A DNA stretch of 64,000 nt, from IMG/VR virus record IMGVR_UViG_3300028833_000004; one strand, given 5' to 3'. The stretch is from a virus. How positions within the stretch are numbered: position 1 is the stretch's first letter; each line of letters begins with the position of its first letter. Shown in pieces: positions 6,401-60,750 of the stretch. The translations under genes and the position numbers were made by a program. The notes beneath the pieces were generated by a model that had not been told where the DNA came from, did no database searches, and saw nothing but the letters and a program-made list of their open reading frames with translations.

Positions 6401-7097
6401 AAGCAATTGCATCTACTACTGTATCACCTCTTTTAAGAACTATCCCATTTTTAATACCAACACTCTTATCAAGGTCTGCTGTATAATTACCGTCCGCATC
6501 AACTGAAAAAGGTTGCTCTTTTAAATGATACTCTGGTATATAAAACTCCCCAACATTAACTTCATCTTTGAGTAATGTTACATGGGTGTTATTTTCATCT
6601 GATGTTACGTCTAAAGTGTAATTTGGAATATTCTATACCTCAGGTAATGGGATTTCAACTTGGTGGGCAAAATCATCGGTTGTAAAAATAGTTAAGATTC
6701 CCTGGTCAAATTCCAGACGTTTGATCTTAGTATCTTTAAAAAATGCCTCACCAGCTGGGGACTCGTTTCCATCTAAATCTCTTCTGACTAATCTAACCCC
6801 ATTATCACCGGATTTTATAGCTGGTTCTAATTTATACTAACTGCTATTTATAACGAGGGTTGTTTCTCCAGTAGCTGCGCATATTACTTTTCTAAGTGCT
6901 TCAATAAGGACCCTGAAATCTTCTTTCTAATAATATTTAGGATCAGAATCGAATCTAATAAGAAGTTCTTCAAGTAATTCGCCCAACTCCTATTGTGAAG
7001 GATTGATAAGATGCTCATTTCTCGGTTCACATATGTCTAATCCCCTAACAACCGAGCAATCATTTATAGCAACCGATTTGTCTATATTAGTATTCAT
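3459..7097 (-). CDS. giant tail-fibre/receptor-binding-like virion protein (1212 aa), TAG-recoded
   Basis: ATG at 7097, TAA at 3459-3461, 3639 nt. About 30 in-frame TAG and zero TAA/TGA. In frame with track ORF 5010..5204. Frame spot-checked at 3 places. Confidence 0.75.
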
Positions 7098-7107
7098 TTT
7101 AAAAATC

Positions 7108-7773
7108 TTAAACGTTTTTATAATCAAGTATTGTTGAAATCTTTTGAGTCTTTCTAATCAACTCCTTAAGTATCTTTCGCTCAGGAAGATCAACCGACCC
7201 CTTAAAAGCAAGCATTAAAAATCCGATCTAATCATTAACCCCTTCCAGACTACAAAAAACAACCTAAGTCATTCCATCTCCAGCCAATTCTCTATATAAT
7301 CCCGGGAAAGTTGTCTATAATTCAGATATATCTTTTATTATATATATGACTTGTTTATCCAACTCATTTATAAAATCTGGAATAGATGAAACCATAATAT
7401 TATCCAAATCCTTACTAAGTTCATCAACTCCTAATTTATTTCTCTATATAACCAGTGAAATATGTAAGAATGGGAGTCCAGTTAAATTATAACCTCCATT
7501 ATGATATTCAAAGATGGCTATACGATCCCCATCGAATTTATTCATAATCTCAGTAAGAAGTCTATTTATTTTAAATATTGAATCTTTTCTAAGTTTGCGA
7601 GCTCCTCGCTTATGTGTCTCAAACTTACCATCTAAAAGAGTTTGAGTTAGAGATTCTACTAGTTTATCTCCAAATTTAAATAATAATAATAAAAAAATAA
7701 TTAGAATAGCCCCAGCTATTCCAAATTGTTCTAAAGCCTAAATAATAAAACCACCTATCTAACTTATATCCAT
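7108..7773 (-). CDS. hypothetical protein with N-terminal transmembrane segment (221 aa), TAG-recoded
   Basis: ATG at 7773, TAA at 7108-7110, 6 in-frame TAG. Hydrophobic stretch GIAGAILIIFLLLF near the N-terminus. Confidence 0.6.
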
Positions 7774-9097: not shown

Positions 9098-9116
9098 CTG
9101 ATAATCAATTAATTAG

Positions 9117-9189
9117 TTGCCCTGAATGGATTCGAACCATTTCCCCAGCTTTTAGAGAGCCATCAACTAACCATTATTATGACAGGGCA
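9117..9189 (-). tRNA. suppressor tRNA, anticodon CUA (reads UAG)
   Basis: 73 nt. Acceptor TGCCCTG/CAGGGCA. Anticodon stem TGGCT/AGCTG with loop CT-CTA-AA. T-arm AATGG-TTCGAAT-CCATT. GG in D-loop. D-stem weak. Confidence 0.75.
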
Positions 9190-11948: not shown

Positions 11949-12809
11949 TTAATACCAATAACCGTTGCCGAAGTATGGATTATATCCATTCCCATAAACT
12001 GAAGATGCGGGCATAGCCACAAGGTTTGGATATTGTACCGTTACTGTAGCGGGCTGAGCTGCTTTAATAGAATTAACCTCTGAAGCAATTGGATTAACCA
12101 AATTAGATACAAACGCTTCAATCTGTGCAGTTTGACTTGCATTATCTATCTAACTACGAAGAGATGTGTTTGCAGCTGTAAGAGCATCAATCTTATTCTA
12201 CAACTCACGTTCCTTCAAATCACAGAACTCTTTGGTAATTAAGGTAGTCTATGCGGCTATTGCATCAGTAATACTTCTGGTGTTTCTATCTGCCTGTGAG
12301 CCCAATTGATTGGTTTGTTCTATTGTAGCTATTCTAGACTCATAACCCTATTGAGTAGTTAAAAGTCTATTTTCGCAGCAACATTCACACAACTGACGCT
12401 CCAGTGAAGCATTACCAGACTGTATTGAATTAATTACCTATAAACCACTCATACCAACCTAAGAACCAACAGTAGCTAAGCCTGTACTCAAAGTACTCAA
12501 AGCCGATTGGATTGAGTTAATATCAGTATGTAAAGTAGATGAAAGGGTTGATATGGCTTTATCATTTCCATTAATACCCTAAATTATCAAATCTCTAGTG
12601 GCATCTCCATTAGCCCAAGTAGCAGCACCATTACCGCCACCAAAACCTCCGAAGCCATTACCTCCCCAGAGTCCACCAAATAAAATACCTGCAAGGAAAC
12701 CAAGTATACCGCCTCCCCAGCCATTACCACCAAATCCATTATTTGCAAATGCATACGGTAACATAGAGTTGGCGTCTTGTCCAAATACATAAGTTTTTTC
12801 TTCTGCCAT
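11949..12809 (-). CDS. Gly-rich membrane-like N-terminus plus coiled-coil protein (286 aa), TAG-recoded
   Basis: Track ORF 12579..12809 is extended through 7 TAG to TAA at 11949. The N-terminus reads GFGGNGWGGGILGFLAGILFGGLWGGNGFGG. Confidence 0.65.
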
Positions 12810-13336: not shown

Positions 13337-13980
13337 TTGTTACAACCACATAAATTAGGTTTTGGTTTTGGTTCTTCCGGCTATTTACAACCACAATTAT
13401 CGGGCGGAGTTCCTTTGGCGCATGAACATCTAGACGGTTTTTGACAACAATTTGCAAATTGTTTAGCTATATATTTAAAAAAGTATTTAGCAGAATCAAT
13501 ATCACGCTCATACATAGCCGCAGTGTGCCCATATAAAAGCATATAATTTCTTATAGCATCATCAGATATGGGATCACATTTTCCTGGTTTTGTTATTGCA
13601 TCAAATAATAAATCATAAACTCCATTTATATCTGAAACTAATGCAGTATCCTCAATATCTGGAGAATATCCTTCATCTGGACTATCTGAGTGCGCATATA
13701 AGGTTATTGTGTACATAGCTGGAATATGGTTGCCTAAACACTCAACTGGAATCTTTAAAGTCCATTCAGACTATTCCTATCCATCAAATTTAGTAAACTC
13801 ATATCTATCATCTCTATTTTTGAAATTTTTACAATCCTCAAGATATGAGACATTTATTTGAATTGAAGTCATGTGATAGCCGTTAGGAACATCAAAAATC
13901 AATTCGATATATTTACTATCATTAGAAACTCTTAAAAGTTCTATGTCTATATGTTTATTTTTAATACAAGGATCAGTCAT
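13333..13980 (-). CDS. hypothetical protein with Cys-rich C-terminus (215 aa), TAG-recoded
   Basis: Joins track ORFs 13777..13986 and 13381..13716 through 3 TAG. Ends at TGA 13333. Confidence 0.6.
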
Positions 13981-14249: not shown

Positions 14250-16469
14250 TTAGTATTTTTTATCGAGAACTTCATCATTCTATTTACCATCATCTAAATA
14301 AACCTAAGCAAGTTCTATTTTATTCCGGTTTTTGATTAGTTCCAACTCCTATTCCTTTAACTCTTTCTTAGCTTTGACCTCGTACCATTTGATATTCTGG
14401 TTCATCTAATTATCTTGCTATTCAATATTCAACTTACGCTCATTTAGCTGTGCAAGTTTCTTTGTAGATTGCTCTAATCTTGATTGCATCTACTACATAT
14501 TTTGTTGTGCCTCCTATAATTGTTGAGCAAGTTGTTGTATCTAATCGTGTTCAAGTTTTTTCTCTTTTATAGATTTTCTAAGAGCATCGTACATTTCCGT
14601 AAGAGATTTAGATTGCATTACTAAAGCTACTATTTCAACATCTACCTAATCACTCTATGCTAATTGAATAGCCAATTGCCTGATTGACTCCTATTCTTTT
14701 ATTAAATCAGCACTACCAGAAACATGAACATCATAATCAGTTTGGGAGTAATGTTCCGGTAAAAGTGTAAAAATCTGTTTTCTATTACCTAGAATAATCT
14801 AACCTGAAAGTCCATTTTTAAAAACTCTTCTGGCAACGTCTAAACTATCTGTTAACATTTCGGATACTAATGTATCCATAGCTTGATAATACTATTTGGT
14901 TATAATAAAAGATTGCTACATACCAACCTCAACATTAGCTACAGCATCTCTAGCTTGAATACCTCCTAATCGCTCTCTAAATACTCCGGTAATAGAACTA
15001 GCAATCTCTTCAGTCATCTATATAGCCAATTGAATGGCCTATAGACTACCTAACTAAACAGTATCATCGTATCCATTAAAATAAGTATTTGCCATCTAGC
15101 CTTCCTAAGAAGAATCGAATATAGATAATCCAGATTTTCTATAGGCCAAATATTTAGCAAGTCTCTCCTCAACATCGTCACCTAAAACTGTCGGTAAAAA
15201 TGATAGATCAACATGAGCTCCACGAGGTCCGGATAGTGCAATAGTGTTATCTTTATAGAAAAGAAGTAAATCGTAAGAATCTTGTAAATAAGCGGTTGCA
15301 AGCATTAAGGAGTATGGGGACCCATGCCCATCAGTATAATATATACCATTTATATTTAATCTAACCTCATTTGGTGCATCCATATCTCTGACGACATGTT
15401 TATCCTCTCCCCGTAATATATACATATCAGAGCCTATTCTTACAACCTCATATCTATTACCTTTAATTTTGCCGGACTTATCTTTAACCCAATCAATCCA
15501 CTCCACTTCATATACTGGAATTAAATCCCACTTCTAATTATAATCACCACCTTCAGGATGCACCCCAACACCATCAACTACACCAGGATTATGATAATCA
15601 CCACATCTAGCACCTAAAGATTTAACCAAAATAAAGTTGCTATGATAGTCTCCTCTATCAATGTATTGATCATCAATTCTATCTATATCGTCCTGGGACA
15701 TTTCCTCACCATATTTAATAAGGATCTCTTCTTTAGTCATCCATTTACGAACAACGGCACGATATCCATTTTTTATATATTTACTTTTTGGATCTTTATC
15801 AACAAAAACATTAATTGGATCCTCAATTTCTATTTTAAAATTGGTTCCTGCAGAAGTTGGAATAACTTTATAATAGGCCTCCCCAGAAATGAACAAATCT
15901 AATAAAATTTGTTGAAGTTTATTTTTAAAATCTATCTTTCTGGACTACATTATGTATTGAACAATATCCTATCCAGCTATTTCATAATTAGATATAAAGT
16001 TTAAATCCACAGATTCCTTTATATCATCTAATTGCTGTTGAATAGTTTGATCAACTATTTTCTGATCCTGCTGTTTGGGTCCAGATAATGCCTAATATAT
16101 AGAATTTTCTAAAAATTTAGAAAGCCAGTCATGAATCTCTTTAGATAACATTAACTATTTCTCTCTAAAAATTTTAGACAAAGTCCCCTAATCTTTACAA
16201 GATATTTTAGGTCTAATTTCTGTTGTCAAGTATTCACCTACAAGTGCATCTATATGTTTTCTAATTAGCGGAGTGAATGACATTGAAGTAGGATTTCCAA
16301 CTCCCTCATTTTTTTCGAGGTTTTCGTATTGGTAATGATCTCGTTTTCCCTAATAATAATTATAAGCTTTATATAGATGTTCTTTCTCCTTAACAAGATC
16401 CCCAATACAATAATCGGCCCACTCTATTAAATAATCATCAGATCCTTTCTTAAACTAAGACTTCCACAT
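14250..16469 (-). CDS. portal protein (putative, 739 aa), TAG-recoded
   Basis: ATG at 16469, TAA at 14250, 2220 nt, more than 20 in-frame TAG and no other stops. Joins track ORFs 15534..15896 and 15105..15506. Sits next to TerL. The size and the coiled C-terminus are portal-like. Confidence 0.6.
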
Positions 16470-16471
16470 AA

Positions 16472-16801
16472 TTATAAATTACTATCATTTGCATGTAGAA
16501 TAATCTACATATGTTGAGTTAAGTCTAATCGACTTTTTTTTAGTTGTTTTCTTATAAACTGCAAAAACTCTTCTTCGGTTTTACATTGTGTTGCATATAT
16601 AATCCCACCATATTGTGGTCCATGAACATACAAAGTAGCCTGATACCAATCACCATCATGAGTTGCTTTTATCGGAACTTCACTTATACAATTATAAACC
16701 TCTTCAATTATGTCAGTTATTTTTTTCTCAAGTCCATCCATTTTTTCTAACATTTTGCTCTTGTGTTGAAATAACTCCAAACACCTTCTAACCATATTCA
16801 T
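16472..16801 (-). CDS. hypothetical protein (109 aa)
   Basis: Track ORF 16505..16816 trimmed to the first ATG. It ends at TAG and continues to TAA at 16472. Overlaps the TerL 3' end; start uncertain. Confidence 0.5.
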
Positions 16802-27347: not shown

Positions 27348-29057
27348 TTATTTATTATTTAATTCACCTCCTGATTTAAATGTAATGGTTGGGCCAAGCT
27401 AGAGTTCATCCATAGTTGCCCCGGCTGTAGTTATTCCAGTTTGATTAGGACCTGGATAAGAATACTAATCAGATATAAAGGGCTAATTTAACACACTTCT
27501 AGCAGAGCCTTGTCCATAAGGATAATATCCTGGAGCGTACTTTCCTCCAACAATATTTTTTACATTACCATCACCTAACGTAAGTTTAATTTTTCCCCAG
27601 GGTCCTGTGGCGACACCTCCAGGATTTTTATGATATTCTTCTTTAAACCACGACTGAAATTCTGGAGACCCCCAATTTTTAACAGTCTACCAAGTTGATA
27701 ATTTGGGAATTGTAACTATAGTAGATGTTGATGGGATAGTTGAAGTAGTCGGATTATCATACCTAGGAAAATATGTTGGATAGAAAAACTTATTTGGAAG
27801 ATTAAAACTATAAGAATATACTCCATAATCAACCGGACTTGGGGTCATTTCTACAGCAAAAGTCTACTACCCCCTACCATCTACAGCAAAAGTCTACTAC
27901 CCCCTACCATGAGGTTGCGCATCTCCATGTCCAAATTTATATCTTGAGGTATTATTCCATCTAAATAAGCCACTGCTTGGTTTTCCAGTATTAAATCCTG
28001 GAGTAGAAGTACCTTTTACTACCTGAGGATTTGCCAACACAACTCTCTAGGTGTCTCCAAATTCTCCAGCAAGACCTTCTAAAGCATTTCCCCCAACCTA
28101 TAAAGTTACATCCGGAGTACTTACATTTTTTAAATGCACTGATCCATCTTTATAACGAACCCACTAATATTGATCCGATATGGGAGTATACGAAAGTTCT
28201 GCAGTTGGAAAGACTTTTGCAGCACCAAAACCAACTCCAAGAGCTGCAGGATGTACAACATTCCAAAAATGGGAATCATTTTCAGCTGGATCTATAAAAA
28301 GATCACTTATAGGTCTTCCAACCTTCTTTTCCATAACATCGGAAAATCCAGAATACTTTCCATCAGACGCTTGTCGTATTGTATAATCTGTTGCAGATGC
28401 AGCTCCAGCACCAGCTATGGCTGCCAATGGATTTGTAAAACCAATTATTGCTGGGGCAATAATAGAGGCAGCTTTATCGGTACTCTATCTTATTCCTCTA
28501 TTAAAAAGCGCTGATTGCACCTACTCTGGTATATATTTAGAAGTCTCTTTATTCCACCAATTTGGATGAGCTTCAATGATTTTAACCCAATCAGGTATAG
28601 GTAAGATCTATCTATACTTTGTATAATTTGGGTTGAATAGAACAGATGGATCATTAGCCGCTTCATTTCTCCAAGCAGTTAATCCCTCAGAACTGGCTTT
28701 TTTATCAGCTTTTCCTGTAACTGTAACTTCTGGAAGCTATCCTGCATATGCGTATGCAGTATTAGAAGTTGTTAAATCTGCATCCTTCACCTACTTTGGT
28801 GTAATGCGAGTAGTATTTCCTTTTGTTTCTACTACATCCTCAAATTGAAATTGATTTCTATATTTAGGGTTAATTACTATTTCTTTATTTCTTTTATCTC
28901 CACCACCCATAGTCTATAATGCCTTAGCTAATCTAATATTAGCTTCAGCCTAACCAACTTCAGAAGGATTAATTCCTAATTCCGGATGATCCTAAACAAA
29001 CTATTTTCGAGATTCTATACTCGATAAATTATACTTCTAAAAAATCTAATACGGTAA
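27348..29057 (-). CDS. large virion-associated hypothetical protein (about 570 aa), TAG-recoded; start uncertain
   Basis: The frame is open from 29135 to TAA at 27348 with about 20 TAG. Includes track ORF 28164..28427. The nearest ATG (29059) is out of frame by one base in an A5/T5 run. Confidence 0.6.
27851..27910 (-). repeat. perfect 30-bp tandem duplication inside CDS
   Basis: ctacagcaaaagtctactaccccctaccat occurs twice, encoding GRGQQTFAV(D/E) twice. Each copy contains two TAG codons. Confidence 0.9.
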
Positions 29058-34649: not shown

Positions 34650-35330
34650 GAAGGTAACACTTTTAAAACCGAAAATATTTCATATAAGTGTTATTTTATA
34701 AAGGGCCGACCGAAACCAGCAGACGGTGAAATAGTTTATGCCATGTTTCGCCGTCTGTCTGATGATTCGGTATTATTATTAATGTATCTCCCTGAATGGT
34801 CAGGAGTATAAATATTGTTGACCAGGAATTTGTCAGTAGTATTGAAACTGTCAATATGTAGTTATATAACATCCGCAGTATTATACATTGAAATATGTAT
34901 AATTGTCTAACAAGTTATGTATAATAAGTTGAAGGTGAAATCTAAATCCTAATCCTGTATAGTTAGACTACAGGTAGCATGTGCAATACCTATAGGTCAT
35001 GCTGTGTGTATATACCCTAAGAGTATCTAGTTCCTATGCTTATAAATGGAAATGGTAGGGGTATTATACACACAAAAAATTGTATTTTGTTAATCAAAAG
35101 TAGTTCAGTATTAAAATGAAGCATAGCGGCTGGTAACCGATTAGAGAGTACCAGACATAGAGTGAAGTCTGTGTCGAAACACATTGCTATAGGAAGACCT
35201 CTATAGATAAAAGGACAATGTGTATGCAATTTCCTTACTGCATAAATCCGAGACTGTTGGTAACAGTTGAACTTCACAGACAGCTATATAGGTGGACTAA
35301 CCATCCGCATCTAGACTATATAGCTTTTTT
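34650..35330 (+). ncRNA. hairpin-dense non-coding tract (one or more small RNAs?)
   Basis: Hairpins at 34954-34974 and 35004-35073 (14+ bp). Two ATGTATAAT boxes at about 34894 and 34917. Ends at terminator 35282-35330. Confidence 0.3.
35282..35330 (+). terminator. rho-independent terminator
   Basis: 9-bp stem AGCTATATA/TATATAGCT at 35282-35290/35317-35325, then T6. Confidence 0.6.
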
Positions 35331-35581
35331 ACTCATACCACTGTGATAGGTGGTATGGGTCCTATCTTGCTTTCTGATATACAATCAGTGGACAACTGCT
35401 TACTTTGAAGAATAAAGGTATGGCAAGAGCTGCACTCTTACTAGGTTCTTGAGTGATAACTTCAAAGCGCTGCGTTTATTAGAGCGTGGAAACAGAAATC
35501 TAATACTCTATTTCTTATTCAGAGTATAACTGAATATATCCCATCCGATGGTAGTGAAAACGATGTAAAACTAAACCTACC

Positions 35582-35607
35582 AATTTTTATTAACAATCTA
35601 AAAATTA
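35582..35607 (+). promoter_or_regulatory. conserved 26-nt early leader/promoter motif, copy 1
   Basis: aatttttattaacaatctaaaaatta lies 8 nt before ATG 35616. A near-identical copy sits at 35993-36018. Confidence 0.4.
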
Positions 35608-35615
35608 TTAGTAAT

Positions 35616-36024: not shown

Positions 36025-36324
36025 ATGAAAAAAGTATATAACGTTGTTCATCACTATGATGTTGATGGCGGAATTGGATATGCCATCAGTCAAAAAGAAG
36101 TTCTATTTATAACTTCTGTCAAAAAAGTGGCAGAAGAATTTATAGATAAATATTCCCATGATCATGTCTATGATGTTCCATATTCAGAACTTCATATGGG
36201 ATTATTAAAAGTGGAAGAATTCAATGTAATAGAATCTTGGGAGGATATCCCCAAAAATATAATTGAATGGGGAGATGAAAACAAAAGTGAGACAGACAAC
36301 TATAATCCGGATGACTATCATTAA
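36025..36324 (+). CDS. hypothetical protein (99 aa)
   Basis: Track ORF. Confidence 0.65.
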   Translation: MKKVYNVVHHYDVDGGIGYAISQKEVLFITSVKKVAEEFIDKYSHDHVYDVPYSELHMGLLKVEEFNVIESWEDIPKNIIEWGDENKSETDNYNPDDYH

Positions 36325-36382
36325 GATTATGAGTTTTCTATCTCAGACTGGTTAGATTGGTAATTATTAAAATATATAAATT

Positions 36383-36601
36383 ATGAAGAAGATATTGAAT
36401 TATATACTGTTGTACGGCACAATAGTGTACAGCTTGCTATTTTTAATGGCGGCAGAGTCATTAATCGAAAGCCTTCCCGCAATAGCCTGTATTATGATTT
36501 TAATACAGGCAACATTAATATTCTTATGTATAGGAATATTTGGAGATGGAAAGTGGCGTGAATATGTACCTAAATGGATAAGTAGGATGGATGAAGATTA
36601 A
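36383..36601 (+). CDS. small membrane protein (72 aa)
   Basis: Track ORF with two hydrophobic helices. Confidence 0.6.
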   Translation: MKKILNYILLYGTIVYSLLFLMAAESLIESLPAIACIMILIQATLIFLCIGIFGDGKWREYVPKWISRMDED

Positions 36602-36804
36602 TTAAATCATGATATATCCTTATATAATGAAACCCTTTTTGACTAACCATTTATGGAGGAATAAATGGAAGCAGGTAAGAAGACATAATAGAAATTGACC
36701 AATTTTCATTATCCTGAGGATCTGGGTACACACAGTATCCTGAAAGTCTTCAATTTGTTCCTAAGAGAGTGATATCTGTTAGGGGCACTAACCCTGCAAA
36801 GGGA

Positions 36805-36878
36805 TTTGTCGTATTAATTTGTGTTTTTCCTGTCGAGAGAGTCTTAATCCTTATTTGGTTGGAAGATGGTTTAGAAGA
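36805..36878 (+). repeat. 74-bp border repeat, order A(36 nt)-B(38 nt)
   Basis: A is tttgtcgtattaatttgtgtttttcctgtcgagaga. B is gtcttaatccttatttggttggaagatggtttagaaga. Both recur at 38350-38423 in swapped order. Confidence 0.9.
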
Positions 36879-37101
36879 CATGCGCGTGCGGTTATATAAG
36901 TAGTGTGTCTTCCGAGTAGTGTGTCTTGCGAACGACTCGGATGAACGACTACAAATTAACGTTTTTTTAGTAACTTGTTTGGGCATGTTAAGTCTTGGTG
37001 TTGATTTCATGTTCTCGAAGTGTCCGTTTGAGGTATATTCGGACGATTTTTATATTACTATTTCAAAAGTGGAGGCACCACGATAAAAACTGTTTATTGT
37101 T

Positions 37102-37383
37102 ATGTATTTATTGAACGCATTTAGTTTGCAGATGGTGGAAACACCTGTATCTGTGAAATTTTCTGAAATAGAAGTGAACGAATTGCCCAAAGAATTAACA
37201 TCAGCCATCGGGCATGCGGATACTGCTGCTGTTCTTGGTGTTGAATGCAATCGCATAAATGTTAAATTAGCAAAAGGCGATACCGCATACGTTGCCCAAC
37301 TGATGGGCGGACGACTCCCCGAAGGGAGCACAACTCTCCCCGAAGGATTCCACTTCAAGTTTATTAAGGTGGACGTTGAATAA
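37102..37383 (+). CDS. acrIII-1: DUF1874 / AcrIII-1-like viral ring nuclease (anti-type III CRISPR), 93 aa
   Basis: LLNAFSLQM, SAIGHADTA, CNRINVKLAKGDTAYVAQ and GGRLPEGSTTLPEG match recalled hallmarks of SIRV1 gp29 / STIV B116 (NAFSINM, IGHxSTA, NR..GD, RLEEG). Confidence 0.7.
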   Translation: MYLLNAFSLQMVETPVSVKFSEIEVNELPKELTSAIGHADTAAVLGVECNRINVKLAKGDTAYVAQLMGGRLPEGSTTLPEGFHFKFIKVDVE

Positions 37384-37499
37384 ATCCCTTATTCAAAATA
37401 ATCAATACGTCAAAGAGCTAATAAATAGGATTTTTGACTAAAATGACAAATCATAAATCCTTAATTAAAAATTACTTATATTTATAAACCTACAATCAA

Positions 37500-37925
37500 A
37501 TGCCATTTAATGAGATGTGGGAAAGTTTAGTGAATATGTATAAGAGTACTGTAATGTTTCTCCGCTCAAATCGGAGAAATCGTCAAACAAAAATGACGAG
37601 GGGCGAATATTGTCCAGGAGAGCTTAAAAGTTCTCAGGCAATTCGCCAAATACTTTTTGATTTGAGAGGTAAGTTAATTCACTTTCCCAAGGATTCTTGG
37701 GTGTACTACATCTTAAGAGACCTTAAGATGGAAGAGTTCCGAAGAGGTGAAATAACCTACTGGAGATGTTGCCCGTACTTTGAGAGGGTGTACATTAACT
37801 TCAATGATGAAGCTAATTGGAACGAACTCCAAAGTACAGGTAAACTCTCCTGGGCTCGGGATGAGTATATATCATGGCTAAAAGCTGTGATGCCGCTCCG
37901 TTCTGAGATTATCCAGGTAGAGTGA
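37500..37925 (+). CDS. hypothetical protein (141 aa)
   Basis: Track ORF downstream of the acr-like gene. No recognised motif. Confidence 0.5.
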   Translation: MPFNEMWESLVNMYKSTVMFLRSNRRNRQTKMTRGEYCPGELKSSQAIRQILFDLRGKLIHFPKDSWVYYILRDLKMEEFRRGEITYWRCCPYFERVYINFNDEANWNELQSTGKLSWARDEYISWLKAVMPLRSEIIQVE

Positions 37926-38219
37926 TCTCCATCGGAGTTCCCACTACAGCAATGTGAATGGCAAGAGAGTGGGTGAAAGAGAGTTGCCCGCTGGTCACGT
38001 AAGACCACAGTCGAAGGTTACACGGAATCTTAAAGATGTAACCGAGTATTTAAAGTTGGGGACAAGTGATTGGTTTTGCTTGTACTTTCTAAATGGGTGT
38101 ACGCCATTCCGTCGGGAATAGTATTCTACTACCATTCCTTGTAAACGACCCGACGCTAAATAATAAACGTTCGACAACGGAAGGACTTGTGCTATCAGGC
38201 TGAACGGGCGGAAATATAG

Positions 38220-38260
38220 CAATCGCATGGGTTAGGTGCGTCCGTGCGGTTGCTTTTTTG
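38220..38260 (+). terminator. rho-independent terminator
   Basis: 9-bp stem GCAATCGCA/TGCGGTTGC (one G-U) at 38220-38228/38246-38254, then T6. Confidence 0.6.
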
Positions 38261-38349
38261 TTATGCACCAAAACGATTTGAACGGATGAAGAGTCTGAAA
38301 ATTTGGCTTGTCAATGTATCTAATTGGCAAGTTGTAGAACATTGCGGCG

Positions 38350-38423
38350 GTCTTAATCCTTATTTGGTTGGAAGATGGTTTAGAAGATTTGTCGTATTAA
38401 TTTGTGTTTTACCTGTCGAGAGA
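38350..38423 (+). repeat. 74-bp border repeat, order B(38 nt)-A(36 nt)
   Basis: B is identical to 36841-36878. A differs from 36805-36840 at one base. Confidence 0.9.
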
Positions 38424-38480
38424 CAGTAAGATCCTGTTGTGAAACAGTGTCTCTGGCATTTTAGATGTTAATAATATACG

Positions 38481-38603
38481 GGTATAGGAGTTTGAATACT
38501 CCCATACCTCCTAAAGTAATAAAGTTGTTAAAACTTTGCTGAGGCCGAATATACTCGCTTAGGCTTTGTTACTTGGGTATAGAGATTTGGTTATCTCTAT
38601 ACC
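38481..38603 (+). repeat. two related hairpins (GGTATAGrAG...CTCyATACC)
   Basis: Hairpins at 38481-38508 and 38576-38603 share stem sequence and the flanking TACCTyCTAA. No T-runs. Confidence 0.6.
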
Positions 38604-38697
38604 TTCTAATTTAATTGAAGAATTTATTTGTTGTTTATTGGGTTGTTTTGTTGAAGTTTGTCATGAGGATTACTTAATTGGGGTTAAGTAATCAGAA

Positions 38698-38727
38698 CTC
38701 TCCCCTGAAATATGGGGAGAGTTTTAT
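38698..38727. terminator. bidirectional terminator hairpin
   Basis: Stem CTCTCCCC/GGGGAGAG at 38698-38705/38714-38721. Abuts the stop of the minus-strand gene at 38724. Confidence 0.6.
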
Positions 38728-39476
38728 AAAACTATATCTTGAAAATTAACTTTATTTTCTTGTATATGTTTTACCAGTGCATTAATTGTTTTAGATTGAT
38801 GTTCTAACTTCTCTTGTAATTGTTTATATTTAAGAGATAAATCATCATGTTCTGATTGTAGAGATTCAATTTTAGAATCTGTTTCTAAGAATTTAAGAGC
38901 AATAGTATTGGCGAATTCATTAAAATTATATATTCGCTGGTAATTACATTCTAAATCAGTATGCCCATTATCTGGGATTTTTACCAATATATTTTTATCT
39001 TCTAAGGATTTCTCATATTTTTGTAAAGTTCTGGGATCTATATTGAGATAATTTGCTAATTGTTTATTACTATATGTAATAATTCCATTTTGTGCAACTG
39101 GATCTTTAAACATAAATTGTTGACTCATTACAATCATCGACTTATCTCTAGAGGATAAATTAGAATCATTTAGAAAATCAAAAGAAAATATTTCAAATTT
39201 ATTATAATCATTAAAGGTATATATAGAAGATGTGCCAGGTCTCTTAGTTATATTAATATATCCTGCATTTTCTAACCTTTTAAGTCCATTTAAAATAGTT
39301 TTTCTATCTAATTCGGAATCTTTTACAATAGTGGAAATTTGTGGATATGCCTGTTTTGTTTCTAAATTCATATATTTTTTAATACAGGCATAGATATAGG
39401 GATCATTTAGTGTTAATCCTTGCTTTTTTAAATCCATATTTGGGATTTGTACGTGCTGTTTTGATAATTCATTCAT
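38724..39476 (-). CDS. replication initiator-like protein with two winged-helix-type domains (250 aa)
   Basis: Track ORF. Contains YPQISTIVKDSELDRKTILNGLKRLENAGYI and NKQLANYLNIDPRTLQKYEKSLEDKNIL. Divergent from the adjacent iteron array. Confidence 0.55.
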   Translation of the reverse strand: MNELSKQHVQIPNMDLKKQGLTLNDPYIYACIKKYMNLETKQAYPQISTIVKDSELDRKTILNGLKRLENAGYINITKRPGTSSIYTFNDYNKFEIFSFDFLNDSNLSSRDKSMIVMSQQFMFKDPVAQNGIITYSNKQLANYLNIDPRTLQKYEKSLEDKNILVKIPDNGHTDLECNYQRIYNFNEFANTIALKFLETDSKIESLQSEHDDLSLKYKQLQEKLEHQSKTINALVKHIQENKVNFQDIVL

Positions 39477-39630
39477 AATAACTTTTATTTTTTACAAAAT
39501 TACTAAAATATAAATATATAAAAAAGATAATGTTATTATTTTTAAAATAATCTAAAGAAGTTATTATTATTGCATAAATGTAATTAGGTAGTGTAATTTT
39601 TGTAATTATATTGGGAATTAAATAAACTTA

Positions 39631-39724
39631 TTGGTATTGGTATACAAATTCGATACTACCCTATGCAAATTCGATACTACCCCCCTATGCAAAATTGGTA
39701 CTACCCTATGCAAAATTGGTACTC
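39631..39724 (+). repeat. iteron array (4 x about 21-24 bp), origin-like
   Basis: TAT(A/G)CAAA(A)TT(C/G)G(A/T)TACTACCC starts at 39641, 39662, 39686 and 39707. Followed by AT-rich direct repeats at 39725-39760. Confidence 0.7.
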
Positions 39725-39789
39725 TAACTATACTTATATATACTTATATAACTATACTTAACCGGCTAAGCCGGAACCTAGCCTCGAAA

Positions 39790-39846: not shown

Positions 39847-39919
39847 GCCGCAATAGCTCAATGGATAGAGCAACTGACTTCTAATCAGTAGGTTGTAAGT
39901 TCGATTCTTACTTGCGGTA
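39847..39919 (+). tRNA. tRNA-Arg (TCT)
   Basis: Acceptor GCCGCAA/TTGCGGT. D-stem GCTC/GAGC. Anticodon loop CT-TCT-AA. T-arm GTAAG-TTCGATT-CTTAC. Confidence 0.85.
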
Positions 39920-39990
39920 CTAGGGAGAGAGGAGTATCTCCACCCTCAAACACTCCCAACTGCTTACTAATCAGTTAAATATATTTTTTT

Positions 39991-41199: not shown

Positions 41200-42174
41200 A
41201 TGAAAATATTAACAGAAAGAGATGTGAATAAGCATGGCTGGGGTATAGTATCGGTAATTACATCCGACATGCTAGAGAAATATGGGTATACACAAATTGG
41301 AGATTATGCTTTTTGGGGCGATGATCTTGAATCAATCATAATACCTAATAGTATAACAAAAATTGGAATTGGCGCGTTCAGAAATTGTCCTAAACTGACT
41401 TCAGTAACAATCCCCAATAGTGTAACAATTATTGACTCTAGGGCTTTTTTAAATTGTAGTAATTTAACCTCAATCAAGATTCCAAATAGTGTAACAGGTA
41501 TTGGTATACATGCTTTTAATGGTTGTTCTAATTTAACTTCAATAGTAGTAGAAGCAGATAATCCAAATTATGATAGTAGAAACAATTGCAATGCTATAAT
41601 AGAGACTGCTACAAACACTCTTATCGCTGGTTGTAAAAATACAATTATTCCCAATAGTGTAACAAATATTGGAAGTTTTGCCTTCTATAGCTGTGATGAT
41701 TTGACATCTATAATAATTCCCGATAATGTAATTAGCATTGGAGATGATGCTTTCTGCAAAACAGGTTTGAAATCCATATCTATTCCAAATAGTGTTACAA
41801 GCATTGGATATTGTGCTTTTAAGGATTGTAAAATTAACATACCTAAAAAATATGATAGTCTGGGTAGACTAATTGCATATAAAGGATTTGATTCTAAGAT
41901 GCAATGTTATGATCATTTTCAATACATTGAAGGACATACTTATAAAACTTCTGAAGCTATATTATGTGAATGCGGATTCCACGCTTGTACTAATCCCTTA
42001 GATATATTTTCTTATTATTTCGGAAGAATAAATAAAAATGTATATATACATGAGGTATATCTTGATGATGTAAGTACTGAAAAGGGTACGGATAGTAAGG
42101 TTGTATCTAAGAAAATAACTATTGGTCGAAGATTAACCATTGAAGACATAAACAATATAATACAAGAAAAATAA
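41200..42174 (+). CDS. BspA-type leucine-rich-repeat protein with conserved Cys/His C-terminal domain, paralogue 1
   Basis: Repeats IPNSVTxIGxxAFxxCxxLTSI. C-terminus [46 protein letters not shown]. Confidence 0.75.
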   Translation: MKILTERDVNKHGWGIVSVITSDMLEKYGYTQIGDYAFWGDDLESIIIPNSITKIGIGAFRNCPKLTSVTIPNSVTIIDSRAFLNCSNLTSIKIPNSVTGIGIHAFNGCSNLTSIVVEADNPNYDSRNNCNAIIETATNTLIAGCKNTIIPNSVTNIGSFAFYSCDDLTSIIIPDNVISIGDDAFCKTGLKSISIPNSVTSIGYCAFKDCKINIPKKYDSLGRLIAYKGFDSKMQCYDHFQYIEGHTYKTSEAILCECGFHACTNPLDIFSYYFGRINKNVYIHEVYLDDVSTEKGTDSKVVSKKITIGRRLTIEDINNIIQEK

Positions 42175-42221
42175 AAAAACATTTGTATAATTCAAAAACA
42201 AAGTAAAAAAAATAAACAAAC

Positions 42222-43070
42222 ATGAAAACATTAACACAAAATAGTGTAATTGAACACGGATGGGATAAATTATCAGTTATAACGGCTGATATGATAGAAA
42301 AATATAGGTATACACAAATTGGGAAAAATGCTTTTAATCATTGCCATAGCCTTACCTCAATTACTATACCTAATAGTGTAACAACCATTGGACTTTATGC
42401 TTTCTATGATTGCACTAATCTTACCTTAATAACCATTCCAAATAGTGTAACAAAAATTGGGGATTATGCTTTCTATAATTGCCGTAGTCTTACCTCAATA
42501 ACAATACCAAATAGTGTAATAGCCATTGGGTGTTGGACTTTTTATAGATGTAATAATCTTACCTCAATTACTATTCCAAATAGTGTAACATACATTGGAA
42601 ATGGTGCTTTCTATCATTGCAGTAATCTTACCTCTATAATCATACCTAATAGTGTAACAACCATTGAAGATGATGCTTTTGCTGATTGTGGAATAAACCT
42701 GCCTAAAAAATACGATAATCAAGGTAGGTTAATTGCATATAAGGGATTTGATAAACACATGCAATGTCGTGGTTTTCAATACATTGAGGGTGAAACCTAC
42801 GAAACAGATAAAGCTAAGTTATGTGTATGTGGTTTTCATGCTTGTACAAATCCTCTTGACATATTTAACTATTATGCTGGTGAAATAAATAATAAAATGT
42901 TTATTCACGAAGTGTATCTTGAAGATGTAAGTGGTGAGGAAAAAAATGATAGTAAAGTAGTTAGTAAGAAAATAACCATAGGTCGAAGATTAACAATTGA
43001 AGATATTAATAATATATTACAAGATGAAAGAGTTAACACGAGACAATGTAACCAAACATGGATGGAATGA
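42222..43070 (+). CDS. BspA-type LRR protein, paralogue 2
   Basis: Same repeat and C-terminal domain as paralogue 1. Confidence 0.75.
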
Positions 43071-43845
43071 ACTATCGGTTATTACAGCCGATATGATAAA
43101 GGAATATGGCTATACTTCTATTGGAGAATACGCTTTCTATAATTGTAAAAATCTAGTTTCAATAACCTTACCAAATAGTATAACGAATATTAGAAGAAGT
43201 GCTTTTTTTAATTGTTATAAATTAGCCTTTATAACAATTCCTAATAGTGTAATCAGTATTGGAAATTATGCTTTCACATTTTGTCACAGCTTGACTTCGG
43301 TTATTATTCCTAATAGCGTAATAAATATTGGAAATAATGCATTCACTGGTTGTAATAGTCTAACCTCAGTCACAATTGGTAATGGTACAACAGGCATTGG
43401 AGATTGTACTTTTGCTTTTTGCAATAATCTTATTTCTATTATCATTCCTAATAGTATAAAAATTATTGGATTTCGTGCTTTTGGAGGTTGTAAAATAAAG
43501 TTGCCTAAAAAATATGATGCCCAAGGTAGATTAATTGCTTACAAAGGATTTAATAAAAACATGCAGTGTCGTAATTTTCAATATGCGGAAGGACAAACTT
43601 ATGAGACATACAAGGCGGAATTGTGTAAATGTGGCTTCCATGCCTGTACTAATCCTCTTGATGTATTTACTTATTATGCAGGTGAAATAGGTAAAGATAT
43701 GTTTATCCATGAAGTATATCTTGAAGAAGTGAATGATGAAGAAGATAGTGATAGCAAGATAGTTGCTAATAAAATAACTATTGGTAAACGTTTAACAATC
43801 AAAGATATTAATAAAATTATACAAAATGAAAATATTAACAGATGA
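43024..43845 (+). CDS. BspA-type LRR protein, paralogue 3
   Basis: Track ORF 42997..43845 trimmed to the ATG giving [14 protein letters not shown], by homology with the paralogue N-termini. Confidence 0.75.
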
Positions 43846-44571
43846 TGAGGTAATTAAAAATGAATGGAATAAAAAGTCCATTATCACCTCCCATATGATA
43901 GAAAAATATGGATACACACAAATTGGAGATCATGCTTTTTTATTTGCCACAATCTTACCTCTATAACTCTTCCAGATAATATAACTAGTATTGAAGCTTA
44001 TGCTTTCTATGGTTGTAACAGGCTGACTTCGGTCACAATTGGCAATAGAGTAACAAGTATTGGAAAGTGTGCATTCGGAAATTGTAAAAAGCTTGCATCT
44101 ATAAATATACCAAATAGTATAATAAGTATTGGAGATTATGCTTTCCATGATTGCTATGGGCTTACTTCGATTGTTATATCAAATAATGTAACAAATATTG
44201 GATGTGGTGCGTTTAGAACAGGTAAATTAATAATTCCTTTAAAAAAATATGATAATCTAGGCAGGTTAATTGCTTATAAAGGTTTTCGTAGAGATATGAC
44301 TTGTCTTGGTTTTCAATACGAAGAGGGAAAGACCTTCGAAACAAATAGAGCAAAGTTATGCGAGTGTGGATTTCATGCTTGTATCAACCCATTGGATGTT
44401 TTCAATTACTATTATGGGAAAATAAATGAAGATATAGTTATTCATGAAGTATATCTTGAGGGCGTATCAGAAGATTTAAGCCCATTTTTATATGATAGTA
44501 AGGTCGTTGCAAAGAAAATCACTATTGGCAAAAGATTGTCTATAGAAGACATTAATAAAATTATACAATAA
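43826..44571 (+). pseudogene. BspA-type LRR protein, paralogue 4, interrupted by a -1 frame change at a T6 run
   Basis: ATG at 43826 ([14 protein letters not shown]). The frame breaks at GCT TTT TTA (43934-43942). The -1 frame from 43942 restores ICHNLTSITLPDN and joins track ORF 44296..44571. Confidence 0.65.
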
Positions 44572-44581
44572 AATAAAAATT

Positions 44582-44980
44582 ATGTGTTTACTAGATACTA
44601 AAAGAATAAGATTTACAATCTTCCCAAAAAAAGTATATAAGATCGTATATGTTGAGGATGGGTGTTATTATTCTCCTTACAGATGTATCGATGTTAAACT
44701 AATGCAGGTGCAATATCCATACTTTAAAAATGTAGAACCATCTGTATTACACGGTGAAACAGAACTTTATGAATTCGGAGATGGATTTGTATTTGGATAT
44801 ACTGATTTAATAGAAGCTATATATGCGAAACACAATCTTGAAAGACAACATCCAAGATTTGAATATGTAATAATAAAAGGTATAATACCTCCATTTACAA
44901 GATATGCTCGTGAAGACCGTTATCCTCTATCCGAAGTATGTGCTAGAAAAATGTTTTGGTATAAAGTGTTAGGAAGATAA
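44582..44980 (+). CDS. hypothetical protein (132 aa)
   Basis: Track ORF. Confidence 0.6.
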   Translation: MCLLDTKRIRFTIFPKKVYKIVYVEDGCYYSPYRCIDVKLMQVQYPYFKNVEPSVLHGETELYEFGDGFVFGYTDLIEAIYAKHNLERQHPRFEYVIIKGIIPPFTRYAREDRYPLSEVCARKMFWYKVLGR

Positions 44981-50055: not shown

Positions 50056-50358
50056 ATGACAGATTACACAGGAAAGAAAGTAATTGTCCGCTCGCACGGA
50101 GCGGGAGTGTTCTTCGGAACGTTGAAAGAATTTGATGCCGCCAACGGTATCGTAGAGTTAACAAACTGCCGCCGTGTGTGGTACTGGAGCGGTGCAACCT
50201 CGCTGTCCCAACTCGCTTGCGAGGGCGTTAAGAATGCCGGAGGCAGCAAGATAACGCAAGAGGTTGCGTCTATATGCGTTACACAAGTTTTGGAAATTAT
50301 TCCATGCACGGAAGAGGCTATTGAAAATCTAAATCGTGTGCCGGTATGGAAGATGTAA
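50056..50358 (+). CDS. hypothetical protein (100 aa) in a GC-richer insert
   Basis: Track ORF. Confidence 0.65.
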   Translation: MTDYTGKKVIVRSHGAGVFFGTLKEFDAANGIVELTNCRRVWYWSGATSLSQLACEGVKNAGGSKITQEVASICVTQVLEIIPCTEEAIENLNRVPVWKM

Positions 50359-51065
50359 TTAAACGCTTTTTAGCAGTAGAATATGGCTATGGTTATGGTT
50401 ATGGCTTTGGCTATGGCTATGGCTATGGCGATGGCGATGGCTCTGGCGATGGCTCTGGCTCTGGCTATAGCGATGGCGATGGCGATGGCTCTGGCGATGG
50501 CTCTGGCTTTGGCTATAGCGATGGCTATGGCTATGGTTATGGCTCTGGCTTTGGCTATGGCTCTGGCGATGGCGATGGCTCTGGCGATGGCGATGGCTCT
50601 GGCATAAAATCTTTTTGTGGGCAAAAAGTCTATATCATAGATAGCGTGCAAACTCTTATCGATAGTATACATGGCAATTATGCAAGAGGTGCGATACTCA
50701 AATCTGATTTGACTACCGAGTCTTGCTACATAGCTAAGGTAGGCAATTTCTTTGCTCACGGCACTACGCTCAAGCAGGCGTTTGCAGACGCACAAGAAAA
50801 GTACGACAGGAACAGATCTATAAAAGAACGCATTGCAGATTTCGTGCAGCAATACCCGACACTTGACACAAAGTGCAAGGGCGCAGACCTCTTCCGGTGG
50901 CACAATGTCCTAACGGGCTCGTGCCAATTAGGCAGAGAGCAGTTTTGCAACGAGCGTGGCATTAACCCCGATACCGTTACGATGACTGTAAGAGAGTTTA
51001 TAGAACTGACAAAAAACGCCTACGGCAGTAAGGCAATCCTACTACTGCGTGAAGCGTATAACTAA
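50346..51065 (+). CDS. protein with N-terminal (Gly-X)n repeat, X = Y/F/D/S, and a globular C-terminal domain (239 aa)
   Basis: Track ORF. About 75 residues of GYGYGYGFGYGYGYGDGDGSGDGSGSG... followed by non-repetitive sequence. Confidence 0.7.
   Translation: MEDVIKRFLAVEYGYGYGYGFGYGYGYGDGDGSGDGSGSGYSDGDGDGSGDGSGFGYSDGYGYGYGSGFGYGSGDGDGSGDGDGSGIKSFCGQKVYIIDSVQTLIDSIHGNYARGAILKSDLTTESCYIAKVGNFFAHGTTLKQAFADAQEKYDRNRSIKERIADFVQQYPTLDTKCKGADLFRWHNVLTGSCQLGREQFCNERGINPDTVTMTVREFIELTKNAYGSKAILLLREAYN
50383..50607 (+). repeat. hexanucleotide-periodic tandem repeat (ggc-tat / ggc-gat / ggc-tct / ggc-ttt units)
   Basis: Seen directly. It generates open frames in several phases on both strands. Confidence 0.9.
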
Positions 51066-59656: not shown

Positions 59657-60008
59657 TATGAGAAAACTGCAAAATAATTTTACTACCTCTGAACAATCAG
59701 AACAACTTCTTAAATTAGGAGTGCCTGCTGATAGTGCTGATATGTATTATAAGCGTACGATGCTTGATCCTTACATATTTACTCTTGGTGTTCGTTTTTC
59801 TGTATATGCAGAAGTAGAAGATATAGTTCCTTGTTGGTCTGTAGGCCGACTGATAGAAATATTAAGGATTTGTGTAACTGATGAAGAAGAAATAGTTGAA
59901 ATAATGGAAAATCTTATATATTGGACACTATTAGACCTTACAGATTTTTTATTACAAACATATCAAGAGTATAAAGAGGTTATTGATTTTTCAAAACTGG
60001 AGGATTGA
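59649..60008 (+). CDS. hypothetical protein, family Z
   Basis: Track ORF. Confidence 0.6.
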   Translation: MINMRKLQNNFTTSEQSEQLLKLGVPADSADMYYKRTMLDPYIFTLGVRFSVYAEVEDIVPCWSVGRLIEILRICVTDEEEIVEIMENLIYWTLLDLTDFLLQTYQEYKEVIDFSKLED

Positions 60009-60010
60009 GT

Positions 60011-60370
60011 ATGAAACAATTATCAAATAATTTCACGACCCCTGAACAGTCAAAAAGATTGCTTGAGTTGGGACTGCCTGCTGATAGTTCTGATTGTTAC
60101 TATGATTGGTATGGTATGAAGTCTGAATCATATCCATATAAAGTTATATCAGTATTTAATGGAGATGATACTTTTTCTATTTTAAAAGATAGATTTAAAA
60201 GAGAACTTCTTCCCTGCTGGTCTGTTGGAAGGTTGATTGAGATACTATGTATTTGTAAAAAAGGCGAAGAAGTATCATTTTATACTTGGTCAGATAAAGT
60301 TGATTTAGTAGAATGGATAATTTATAAAATAGAAGTAGCAGAACCCGACTTTTCAAAACTGGAGGAATGA
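60011..60370 (+). CDS. hypothetical protein, family Z
   Basis: Track ORF 60005..60370 trimmed to the ATG. GGAGG lies upstream. Confidence 0.6.
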   Translation: MKQLSNNFTTPEQSKRLLELGLPADSSDCYYDWYGMKSESYPYKVISVFNGDDTFSILKDRFKRELLPCWSVGRLIEILCICKKGEEVSFYTWSDKVDLVEWIIYKIEVAEPDFSKLEE

Positions 60371-60750
60371 TTATGAAACAAATTTATAATTATACACAGC
60401 AGTCTATTTCGTATGATGGTGGATGGGATGATTATCGATACTACCAATGTGAAACAGAGGAAGAGTATAGGCAGTGTGTCGCTAAGGCACTGAGTGATGT
60501 TGAGGACTATACTCGGCGAGGTTATGCTGCTTTCATTAATATTGACCAAGATACCAAGATAGTTACTCGTCAGTATCATTCGCCCGGTTGCGGATGGATT
60601 GGTAGAATCTTCGATGCCGAAGGTTTGGCTGTACATAAGCGCTTTGAGCGAAGTAATGAACATTGTTATTATATTCGTCCCGACACGTTTGTCGAGCAAC
60701 CACAACCTAAGCGAGAAGTATCATTCATGGACGCATTAACAGACTCATAA
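60367..60750 (+). CDS. hypothetical protein (127 aa), GC-richer
   Basis: Track ORF. Confidence 0.6.
   Translation: MIMKQIYNYTQQSISYDGGWDDYRYYQCETEEEYRQCVAKALSDVEDYTRRGYAAFINIDQDTKIVTRQYHSPGCGWIGRIFDAEGLAVHKRFERSNEHCYYIRPDTFVEQPQPKREVSFMDALTDS

Follow-up and report, generated by a model that had tools for sequence, protein, structure and literature searches.

Two type III CRISPR repeats, each with an outer spacer-length unit, bracket an acrIII-1-like cassette in a rumen phage

Introduction

Phages are known to carry solitary mimics of the repeats of CRISPR loci. These mimics are enriched less than 1 kb from anti-CRISPR (acr) genes and, as RNA anti-CRISPRs (Racrs), sequester Cas6 and backbone proteins (PMC10651486). 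Here, we describe a locus of a rumen phage (IMG/VR record IMGVR_UViG_3300028833_000004; contig 117-158 kb) in which two copies of a type III CRISPR repeat, hereafter B, bracket a small cassette with an acrIII-1-like gene, and each B is adjoined on its outer side by a copy of a spacer-length unit, hereafter A. The analysis concerns a stretch of 64,000 nucleotides (nt), referred to as the window, whose coordinates are used throughout. As in the solitary repeat units and Racrs described so far (Faure et al. 2019; Camara-Wilpert et al. 2023, PMC10651486), the repeat lies in intergenic phage DNA, with no array and no cas gene nearby, with an acr gene at less than 1 kb, and with agreement between the CRISPR type of the repeat and that of the acr gene. 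Different from them, the present locus has its acr cassette between two identical copies of the repeat, at a distance of 1509 nt and each with an outer spacer-length unit, and the repeats are antisense to the neighboring genes.

Mini-CRISPR arrays of viruses (Medvedeva et al. 2019; Faure et al. 2019; as related in PMC8616872) also combine host-type repeats and a spacer-length unit in a virus without cas genes, with a "spacer" that matches viral sequence, which in our case is only the second copy of A. However, the linear order here is spacer-repeat...repeat-spacer, which becomes a mini-array only after permutation, and a 1.47-kb cassette stands between the repeats. CRISPR loci and phages have been reported to recombine between spacer and protospacer (Varble et al. 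2019, Nat Microbiol, as related in PMC8616872). A homologous crossover at a spacer/protospacer of 30 to 40 nt, by which phage DNA becomes joined to CRISPR repeats, predicts a protospacer abutting a repeat exactly at its boundary, as we observe, but the case related there is that of staphylococcal transducing particles with host CRISPR loci, in contrast to a stable phage genome with a putative scar around an acr cassette. Solitary repeats of phages have, in addition, been proposed as a route of recombination (PMC10651486, PMC8616872).

Solitary repeats and mini-arrays near acr genes are, in summary, already known in phages, and what is new is the permuted spacer-repeat-cassette-repeat-spacer form. 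Outside the CRISPR field, the PeSL elements that Arbiol et al. reportedly described in 2010 in the hyperplastic regions of T4-type phages are said to be repeat-flanked cassettes that yield mini-circles. They would resemble the locus in that short direct repeats bracket small accessory cassettes of the early region, permitting circle excision and shuffling; unlike it, they are said to involve the phage's own promoter/stem-loop units in many copies, and not two host CRISPR repeats with a permuted spacer unit.

Results and Discussion

Arrangement of the repeat units

The repeat search of the window returned two copies of B (GTCTTAATCCTTATTTGGTTGGAAGATGGTTTAGAAGA; 36841-36878 and 38350-38387), identical at 38 of 38 positions, and two copies of A (GATTTGTCGTATTAATTTGTGTTTT[T/A]CCTGTCGAGAGA), which match at 37 of 38 positions, the single mismatch being at 38411. 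All four units are in direct orientation and read A-B at the left end of the locus and B-A at its right end, with a start-to-start spacing of 1509 nt for the B pair and 1583 nt for the A pair. On the right side, two nucleotides (GA) are common to B and A, and the homology runs one base further at each inner end; base 36878 (A), just past the 37-nt unit of B copy 1, is also common to copy 2. No third copy of A or B occurs at three or fewer mismatches anywhere in the 64-kb window, and the A/B search in 100 shuffles gave 0 matches.

The A-B...B-A arrangement is the same, base for base, in four independent JGI/ENA assemblies. Two of them (JGI 3300031992 and ENA ERZ27257202; L001 and L002) show full identity, while JGI 3300024342 (L003) spans 36803-38942 and JGI 3300035054 (L004) spans 36823-38791. 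An assembly artefact is ruled out by this agreement. A first-pass annotation, made from the letters of the window, had described a 74-bp repeat whose halves are swapped between the two sides (A-B, then B-A), all in direct orientation, with two identical 38-nt copies of B and one mismatch between the copies of a 36-nt A. The repeat search and the four assemblies bear out this description, and the 36-nt A (36805-36840 and 38388-38423) is the same object as the 38-nt A reported here.

Assignment of B to a type III repeat family

The search pattern for B was built from the positions common to the B of the window and the solitary repeat of a related phage (L055), and reads GTCTTAATCCTTNTTTNNNNGGAAGAT, with 22 specified bases. 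It matched at least 120 metagenome contigs, nearly all of which carry arrays, with up to 75 copies at a period of 70 to 78 nt. The repeat unit of these arrays is 37 nt long, composed of a conserved part of 27 nt and a variable part of 10 nt, and the spacers measure 33 to 41 nt. Where the flanking DNA suffices, the neighbors of the arrays are type III RAMPs, TM1812-type CARF proteins, Cas1, a CRISPR-associated primase-polymerase (PrimPol), and a RecD-like helicase. In particular, one array locus (L131) encodes a TIGR03986 type III RAMP, Csx7/Csm3-like and Csx10-like RAMPs, and a TM1812 CARF protein, and another (L122) a CARF protein, a RecD-like helicase, Cas1, and a PrimPol of type B. Among reference genomes, those with the ATTT subfamily, to which B comes nearest, include Prevotella denticola, Hoylesella shahii, Paludibacteraceae, Proteiniphilum, and further Bacteroidales. 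B itself is a true CRISPR repeat, 37 nt in length, from a type III-associated family that is carried by Bacteroidales of the rumen and gut, and, since this family adjoins type III cas genes, the repeat type matches that of the anti-type III gene that it flanks. Within IMG/VR, exact B had no match, and a looser B pattern gave one array at the end of a contig and otherwise chance matches.

The boundaries of the A/B homology coincide with the CRISPR repeat boundaries to within 1 nt, and A plus B amount to 74 nt, inside the range of array periods. The two copies of B do not form an array of the phage's own, as they are only two and 1509 nt apart, with no other array and no leader-like flank in the window. 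Nor do they form a contiguous repeat-spacer-repeat, which would exist, as repeat-A-repeat, only on a hypothetical circle of 1583 bp. Since duplication or deletion of one A-B unit cannot make the B-A junction, the locus, which reads spacer-repeat-acrIII-1 cassette-repeat-spacer, is a circular permutation of a repeat-spacer-repeat mini-array plus the cassette.

Two features of the host arrays were recorded on the side. The adaptation module of several loci (L122, 3512-7050; L062; L075; L123) consists of a RecD-like helicase, Cas1, and a primase-polymerase (NF040562, E = 1e-132), with no separate cas2 among their listed open reading frames (ORFs). In L066 (261-1629), an insertion sequence (IS) element with a 390-amino-acid (aa) DDE transposase splits a B-family host array between two repeats.

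The spacer-length unit A

Given a 37-nt repeat, A is also 37 nt long and falls within the range of the array spacers. A most likely represents a protospacer of the phage together with the spacer that matches it. Its interpretation as an array leader or flank was rejected, as it shows no similarity to the array loci, and no hammerhead-like core was found near A.

When the approximately 2,200 spacers of the retrieved arrays were compared with the phage, one marginal match was obtained, in which a spacer of L181 agrees at 27 of 30 positions with a repeated motif at 59985/60347. About 0.1 such matches are expected by chance over all spacers tested, and the match is a weak hint of the host. The motif (59985-60031 and 60347-60393) lies ahead of paralogous phage genes. 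The array concerned (L181, 3770-3915) belongs to a Paludibacteraceae metagenome-assembled genome from roe deer rumen, has a repeat of the B subfamily, and contains this 35-nt spacer twice, in neighboring slots, so that a spacer-repeat-spacer arrangement with identical spacers does occur naturally.

Among the explanations that the first-pass annotation had offered for the swapped order, that of repeat/spacer-like units proved right, as B belongs to a type III repeat family and A plus B have the length of an array period. A lack of similarity to any CRISPR repeat, which it had named as an outcome that would speak against this idea, is contradicted by the presence of the B core in arrays on the contigs described above. 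The search of A and B against CRISPR and host sequences that it had suggested succeeded for B, which matches array repeats, and not for A, which has no match in IMG/VR, GTDB genomes, or the retrieved loci. Moreover, the GTCTT...AAGAC closure noticed in B is coincidental, since its C follows copy 1 only and lies outside the 37-nt unit.

Strand and transcription of the repeats

In the orientation of B, the first repeat of the arrays is the degenerate one, the flank past the last repeat (AGCAAAGAC...) is conserved across different arrays, and, where two arrays have spacers in common, these occupy the B-upstream end, opposite the end that holds the unique spacers. These three features place the leader after the last repeat, and it follows that the repeat in the sense of the CRISPR RNA (crRNA) is the reverse complement of B. 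The last 8 nt of the crRNA-sense repeat, ATTAAGAC, make up a typical 3' tag. For the window, the crRNA sense thus falls on the minus strand, opposite in direction (antisense) to acrIII-1 and to the second ORF of the cassette (orf141), so that an RNA of gene sense would carry the anti-repeat. Relative to the genes beside it, the solitary repeat of L055 is oriented in the same way.

On the plus strand, an RNA would carry A copy 1 followed by GUCUUAAU, which is the exact complement of the crRNA tag and thus a perfect anti-tag. A copy 2 has a noncomplementary (non-self) flank, CAGUAAGA, and sits behind the putative terminator of the cassette. Complementarity to the crRNA tag is the mark that type III systems read as "self."

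The search for transcription signals and RNA structures was mostly negative. Sites found by the sigma-70 scan were no more frequent than in shuffles, the stretch 36300-39000 contains no Bacteroidetes -7 motif (TAnnTTTG), and no terminator or promoter consensus occurs inside A or B. An Rfam search over 36500-38800, with gathering and E-value thresholds, returned nothing meaningful, and a RAGATH-26 match beside B copy 2 was discarded, since it reached 19.8 bits where the cut-off is 86. When both repeat regions, the 337-nt 3' noncoding part of the insert, and the reconstructed empty sites were folded, the z values were only -1.5 to -1.8, none of them decisive.

The acrIII-1 cassette

The features of the locus are listed in Table 1. 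The G+C content of the insert is 40.7%, compared to 30.5% and 27.2% in the flanks, and, with the exception of the acr gene itself, the insert shows no similarity to array loci or to other acr loci.

TABLE 1 Features of the locus, in window coordinates
Feature	Position	Strand	Remarks
A, pattern form			TTTGTCGTATTAATTTGTGTTTT
A copy 1, spacer-length unit	36803..36840 (37-nt core, 36804-36840)		Ends exactly at the repeat start; read as left protospacer/spacer copy
B copy 1, 37-nt type III CRISPR repeat	36841..36877	minus	Plus strand reads GTCTTAATCC...GAAG
Insert, in the "spacer slot" between the repeats	36879..38349	plus	1471 bp
Tandem 16-nt repeat	36899..36930	plus	AGTAGTGTGTCTTCCG / AGTAGTGTGTCTTGCG, in the 223-nt leader ahead of the acr gene
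acrIII-1-like gene	37102..37383	plus	93 aa; DUF1874 / STIV B116-like ring-nuclease family
orf141, orphan ORF	37500..37925	plus	141 aa
Intrinsic-terminator-like hairpin and T run	38218..38254	plus	About 95 nt ahead of B copy 2
B copy 2, 37-nt type III CRISPR repeat	38350..38386	minus	Identical to copy 1
A copy 2, spacer-length unit	38386..38423 (core, 38387-38423)		Starts exactly at the repeat end
Replication-initiator (Rep) gene, HTH_36/DnaD_N	38724..39476	minus	Convergent with the cassette

The predicted product of the first gene matches PF08960 (34.9 bits against a cut-off of 26) and phrog_5063, as well as the AFV3-109/SIRV1 gp29-type chains of PDB entries 2J6B, 2X4I, and 6SCF, and conserves the SAIGH motif with the catalytic His. 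By these matches, the gene is a member of the AcrIII-1 (DUF1874 viral ring nuclease) family, in agreement with the anti-type III gene that the first reading of the locus had placed next to the repeats. AcrIII-1 ring nucleases destroy the cyclic tetra-adenylate signal of type III CRISPR. The protein has 36 viral homologues, and their loci have in common only the gene, neither the cassette nor the repeats. The distance from the end of B copy 1 to the gene, 223 nt, is well within the 1 kb that characterizes the colocation of solitary repeat units with acr genes, and B is, as in such units, an intergenic repeat of a phage outside any array.

The second ORF, orf141, has no match in Pfam or PHROG, and its sole match among 5.8 billion proteins is itself; the AlphaFold2 model, with a predicted local distance difference test (pLDDT) score of 39.7, is unusable. 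It is followed by approximately 330 nt of noncoding DNA up to the terminator-like hairpin, which probably ends the cassette transcript, while the 16-nt tandem repeat in the leader could be an operator. The insert encodes the acr gene and the orphan ORF, with no integrase or transposase and no terminal inverted repeats, which upholds the earlier exclusion of attachment (att) sites, target-site duplications, and IS ends.

Related phages

Relatives were sought with the Rep gene as synteny anchor. Among GenBank phages, nothing is close to the region, the exact flanking proteins were found on identical contigs only, and, in the closest relatives with long contigs, Rep is 43 to 54% identical and the site is not alignable.

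The relative with a Rep of 54% identity (L055) carries one solitary B-like repeat, identical to B at 30 of 38 positions, in a different intergenic region, which indicates that carriage of the repeat recurs in this phage group. This repeat is nearer to the array consensus than B, with 25 of the 27 core positions compared to 23 of 27. Another relative (L194; Rep 43% identical) has acrIII-1, with 73% protein identity, at the syntenic position beside Rep, with neither a repeat of the B family nor a flanking duplication of A. It follows that the repeats and the duplication of A are specific to the lineage of the window. In L055, L056, and three more relatives, other small genes occupy the position of the cassette, and the site is therefore a variable accessory region.

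Two RNA-related features of these relatives were also noticed. Approximately 300 nt upstream of acrIII-1 in L194, and codirectional with it, a hammerhead ribozyme (RF03152, RAGATH-1 hammerhead; 12094-12164, minus strand; 59.9 bits against a cut-off of 56.3) lies in a structured noncoding region of about 960 nt. In L055, a tRNA-like fragment with T-arm and acceptor (AAAGGTTCGATTCCTTTGGTGGGCT; 13800-13860, minus strand), for which ARAGORN makes no tRNA call, directly precedes the solitary repeat.

Origin of the arrangement

Starting from what is directly established, i.e., the identity of the repeat, the type III context of its family, its strand, and the geometry, we infer a history of recombination. 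The coexistence of an A-B and a B-A junction needs an alternating layout of repeats and spacers, which points to homologous recombination with DNA of the CRISPR-array type. We lean, with some reserve, to the view that the structure arose by recombination of the phage with DNA of a CRISPR array or mini-array and that the scar was retained around the acr cassette. The G+C content of the insert above that of its flanks, the agreement between acr type and repeat type, and the coincidence of the homology boundaries with those of the repeat were counted in its favor.

Three routes could lead to the observed order, and all of them use only documented or proposed steps. In the first, a circle or array segment with repeat-A-repeat and the cassette (a 1583-bp unit) would cross over with the phage's own A and give left-A-B-insert-B-A-right in one step. 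In the second, the phage would recombine with a host array at A and leave via the flanking repeats, giving A-B-A, and a 1509-bp repeat-bearing cassette would then enter at B. In the third, the host array would already have the cassette beside spacer A, and the phage would integrate at A and exit via the outer repeats. As neither an empty site nor a donor was found, the three routes are not distinguishable.

The first-pass annotation had predicted circles from recombination between either repeat pair, and contigs compatible with the smaller one do exist. In one contig (L007), the insert end leads, by way of a single B, back to the insert start, as expected at the junction of a 1509-bp circle, and another (L005) is 1509 + 30 nt long with identical 30-nt ends. 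Both fit a 1509-bp circle or a tandem copy. However, the Logan assemblies in question were made at k=31, and B is 38 nt long; every k-mer of L007 is also present in the integrated form, and the flank contigs of the same runs stop inside B as a branching graph at k=31 predicts.

A number of results weigh against the recombination history. A k=31 graph can walk through the 38-nt B, so that both contigs are explicable by assembly ambiguity. An empty site, with a single A or with A-B-A, was not found among the relatives, and neither was a donor with repeat-A-repeat. Searches of IMG/VR, of GTDB genomes, of the array loci, and of the relatives brought up no further A, and it gave 0 matches against the approximately 2,200 spacers from the retrieved arrays. 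The closest array repeats among the matches listed have 32 of 37 positions in common with B, and the exact repeat of the host is not among them; one of these closest repeats (L129) was recovered from the rumen sample that also yielded the phage. Two motif scans returned no promoter motif for either strand of the repeats. Finally, since acrIII-1 is syntenic in L194, the gene could be an old resident, which somewhat weakens the idea of an imported circle.

As for a present function of the retained units, we infer a recombination scar kept as decoys and recombination handles, and we rank this above readings based on anti-repeat RNA or on anti-tag protection. The repeats would probably serve as RNA-level partners of the Acr protein, and the B pair, as 38-bp direct repeats, would permit loss, amplification, or exchange of the cassette. 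The role as an RNA decoy on which the first-pass annotation had speculated is complicated by the strand, as the crRNA sense runs antisense to the acr genes and the scans gave no promoter for it.

A more far-reaching version of the recombination history, which we put forward only tentatively, regards the locus as a preserved intermediate. A phage targeted by a type III system would recombine at the spacer/protospacer and leave with a repeat and a duplicated protospacer, and the captured repeats would become portable slots through which acr cassettes are inserted, excised, and exchanged. The anti-tag behind protospacer copy 1 would then be a by-product, and the gene-sense RNA would also contain an anti-repeat, which could pair with the precursor crRNA of the host. 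The origin of phage solitary repeats beside acr genes is an open question, and the geometry found here is that predicted by capture from targeting arrays. If this were true, spacer-protospacer recombination, solitary repeats, and acr mobility would be joined in one mechanism, and the signature spacer-repeat...repeat-spacer could be searched for in other phages. The locus also offers a concrete pairing of a Bacteroidales type III system with CARF effectors and a rumen phage that appears to recode TAG and is equipped with an AcrIII-1-like protein and repeat mimics.

Among the explanations that dispense with this history, the one that fares best, which we nevertheless hold to be unlikely, is that of a Racr. 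A crRNA-sense B would be bound by Cas6 and the type III backbone and sequester them, A would be a promoter or processing flank, and the two A+B units would be kept by selection. A repeat-like B that is intergenic, outside arrays, and separated by 223 nt from an acr gene fits the description of Racr candidates (PMC10651486), and L055 provides a second phage of the group with such a repeat. However, the crRNA-sense strand is antisense to acrIII-1 and orf141, and likewise to the neighboring genes in L055; no sigma-70-like or Bacteroidetes-type promoter motif stands upstream on the minus strand; and the swapped order, with A upstream of B once and downstream once, is unfit for a single functional A+B unit.

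It is still harder to credit, in our opinion, that the units act as a working guide, in the manner of an inter-phage mini-array. The repeat copy 1 on the minus strand and the complement of A would give a crRNA (tag AUUAAGAC and 37-nt guide) directed against plus-strand RNA that bears A, for example of cassette-free competing relatives. A repeat followed by a spacer is the minimal type III crRNA unit, the 3' end being trimmed, and virus-borne mini-arrays that target related viruses are known (PMC8616872). Of the phage's own copies of A, copy 1 is followed in plus-strand RNA by the perfect anti-tag and is hence "self," and copy 2 lies behind the terminator. On the other hand, the sole known target is the phage itself, where the flank of copy 2 is non-self, A was found in no other phage, the scans gave no promoter, and one gene of the cassette itself codes for an inhibitor of type III signaling.

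We regard as very improbable an insertion of the integrase type, in which Cas1-Cas2 of the host would have put a long DNA into a solitary repeat of the phage and duplicated the repeat. A repeat that is duplicated exactly once, so as to flank the inserted DNA on both sides, is what typifies the integration of a spacer, and the host loci encode Cas1 together with PrimPol; but the identical outer A units would be left unexplained, a preexisting A-repeat-A being needed, neither phage repeat has the leader-like flank of the arrays, and an insert of 1471 bp is about 40 times as long as a normal spacer. An ordinary duplicated regulatory sequence, a chance similarity, or an artefact with no relation to CRISPR can practically be dismissed, since the B core matches regularly spaced repeats beside cas genes on at least 120 contigs, shuffles gave 0 matches, four assemblies agree, and A and B hold no promoter or terminator consensus, even though the units are intergenic and phages often repeat regulatory elements, as here at 35582 and 35993.

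Other features of the window

The genes on the minus strand between positions 1 and 31000 contain many in-frame TAG codons, with, for instance, a stop-to-stop frame of 1232 aa with 30 TAGs at 3459-7157 and one of 742 aa with 28 TAGs at 14250-16478. Reading TAG as sense doubles the total stop-to-stop ORF length (ORFs of at least 150 aa), and a suppressor tRNA with anticodon CTA is located at 9116-9189. The phage appears to recode TAG in the minus-strand block, and the plus-strand block with the cassette appears to use the standard code.

Just upstream of the Rep gene, iteron-like direct repeats (TATGCAAA(A)TT(C/G)G(A/T)TACTACCC units) occupy 39620-39730 and 39847-39920 and are followed by a tRNA-Arg(TCT); the region is probably the replication origin. 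On the other side of the locus, about 750 nt (34873-35615) have no convincing ORF under either genetic code. Part of this DNA (35131-35319) is 74.6% identical to L055, unusually conserved for intergenic DNA in the group, and may be a structured RNA, although an Rfam search found nothing.

Tandem repetition was also noticed elsewhere in the window. At least four tandem paralogues encoding LRR_5/DUF7666 proteins, with an internal 69-nt periodicity and homologues in related phages, lie at 41200-44600; positions 27850-27909 hold a perfect tandem duplication of 30 nt; and tandem repeats of 12/18 nt form a long run over 50336-50647.

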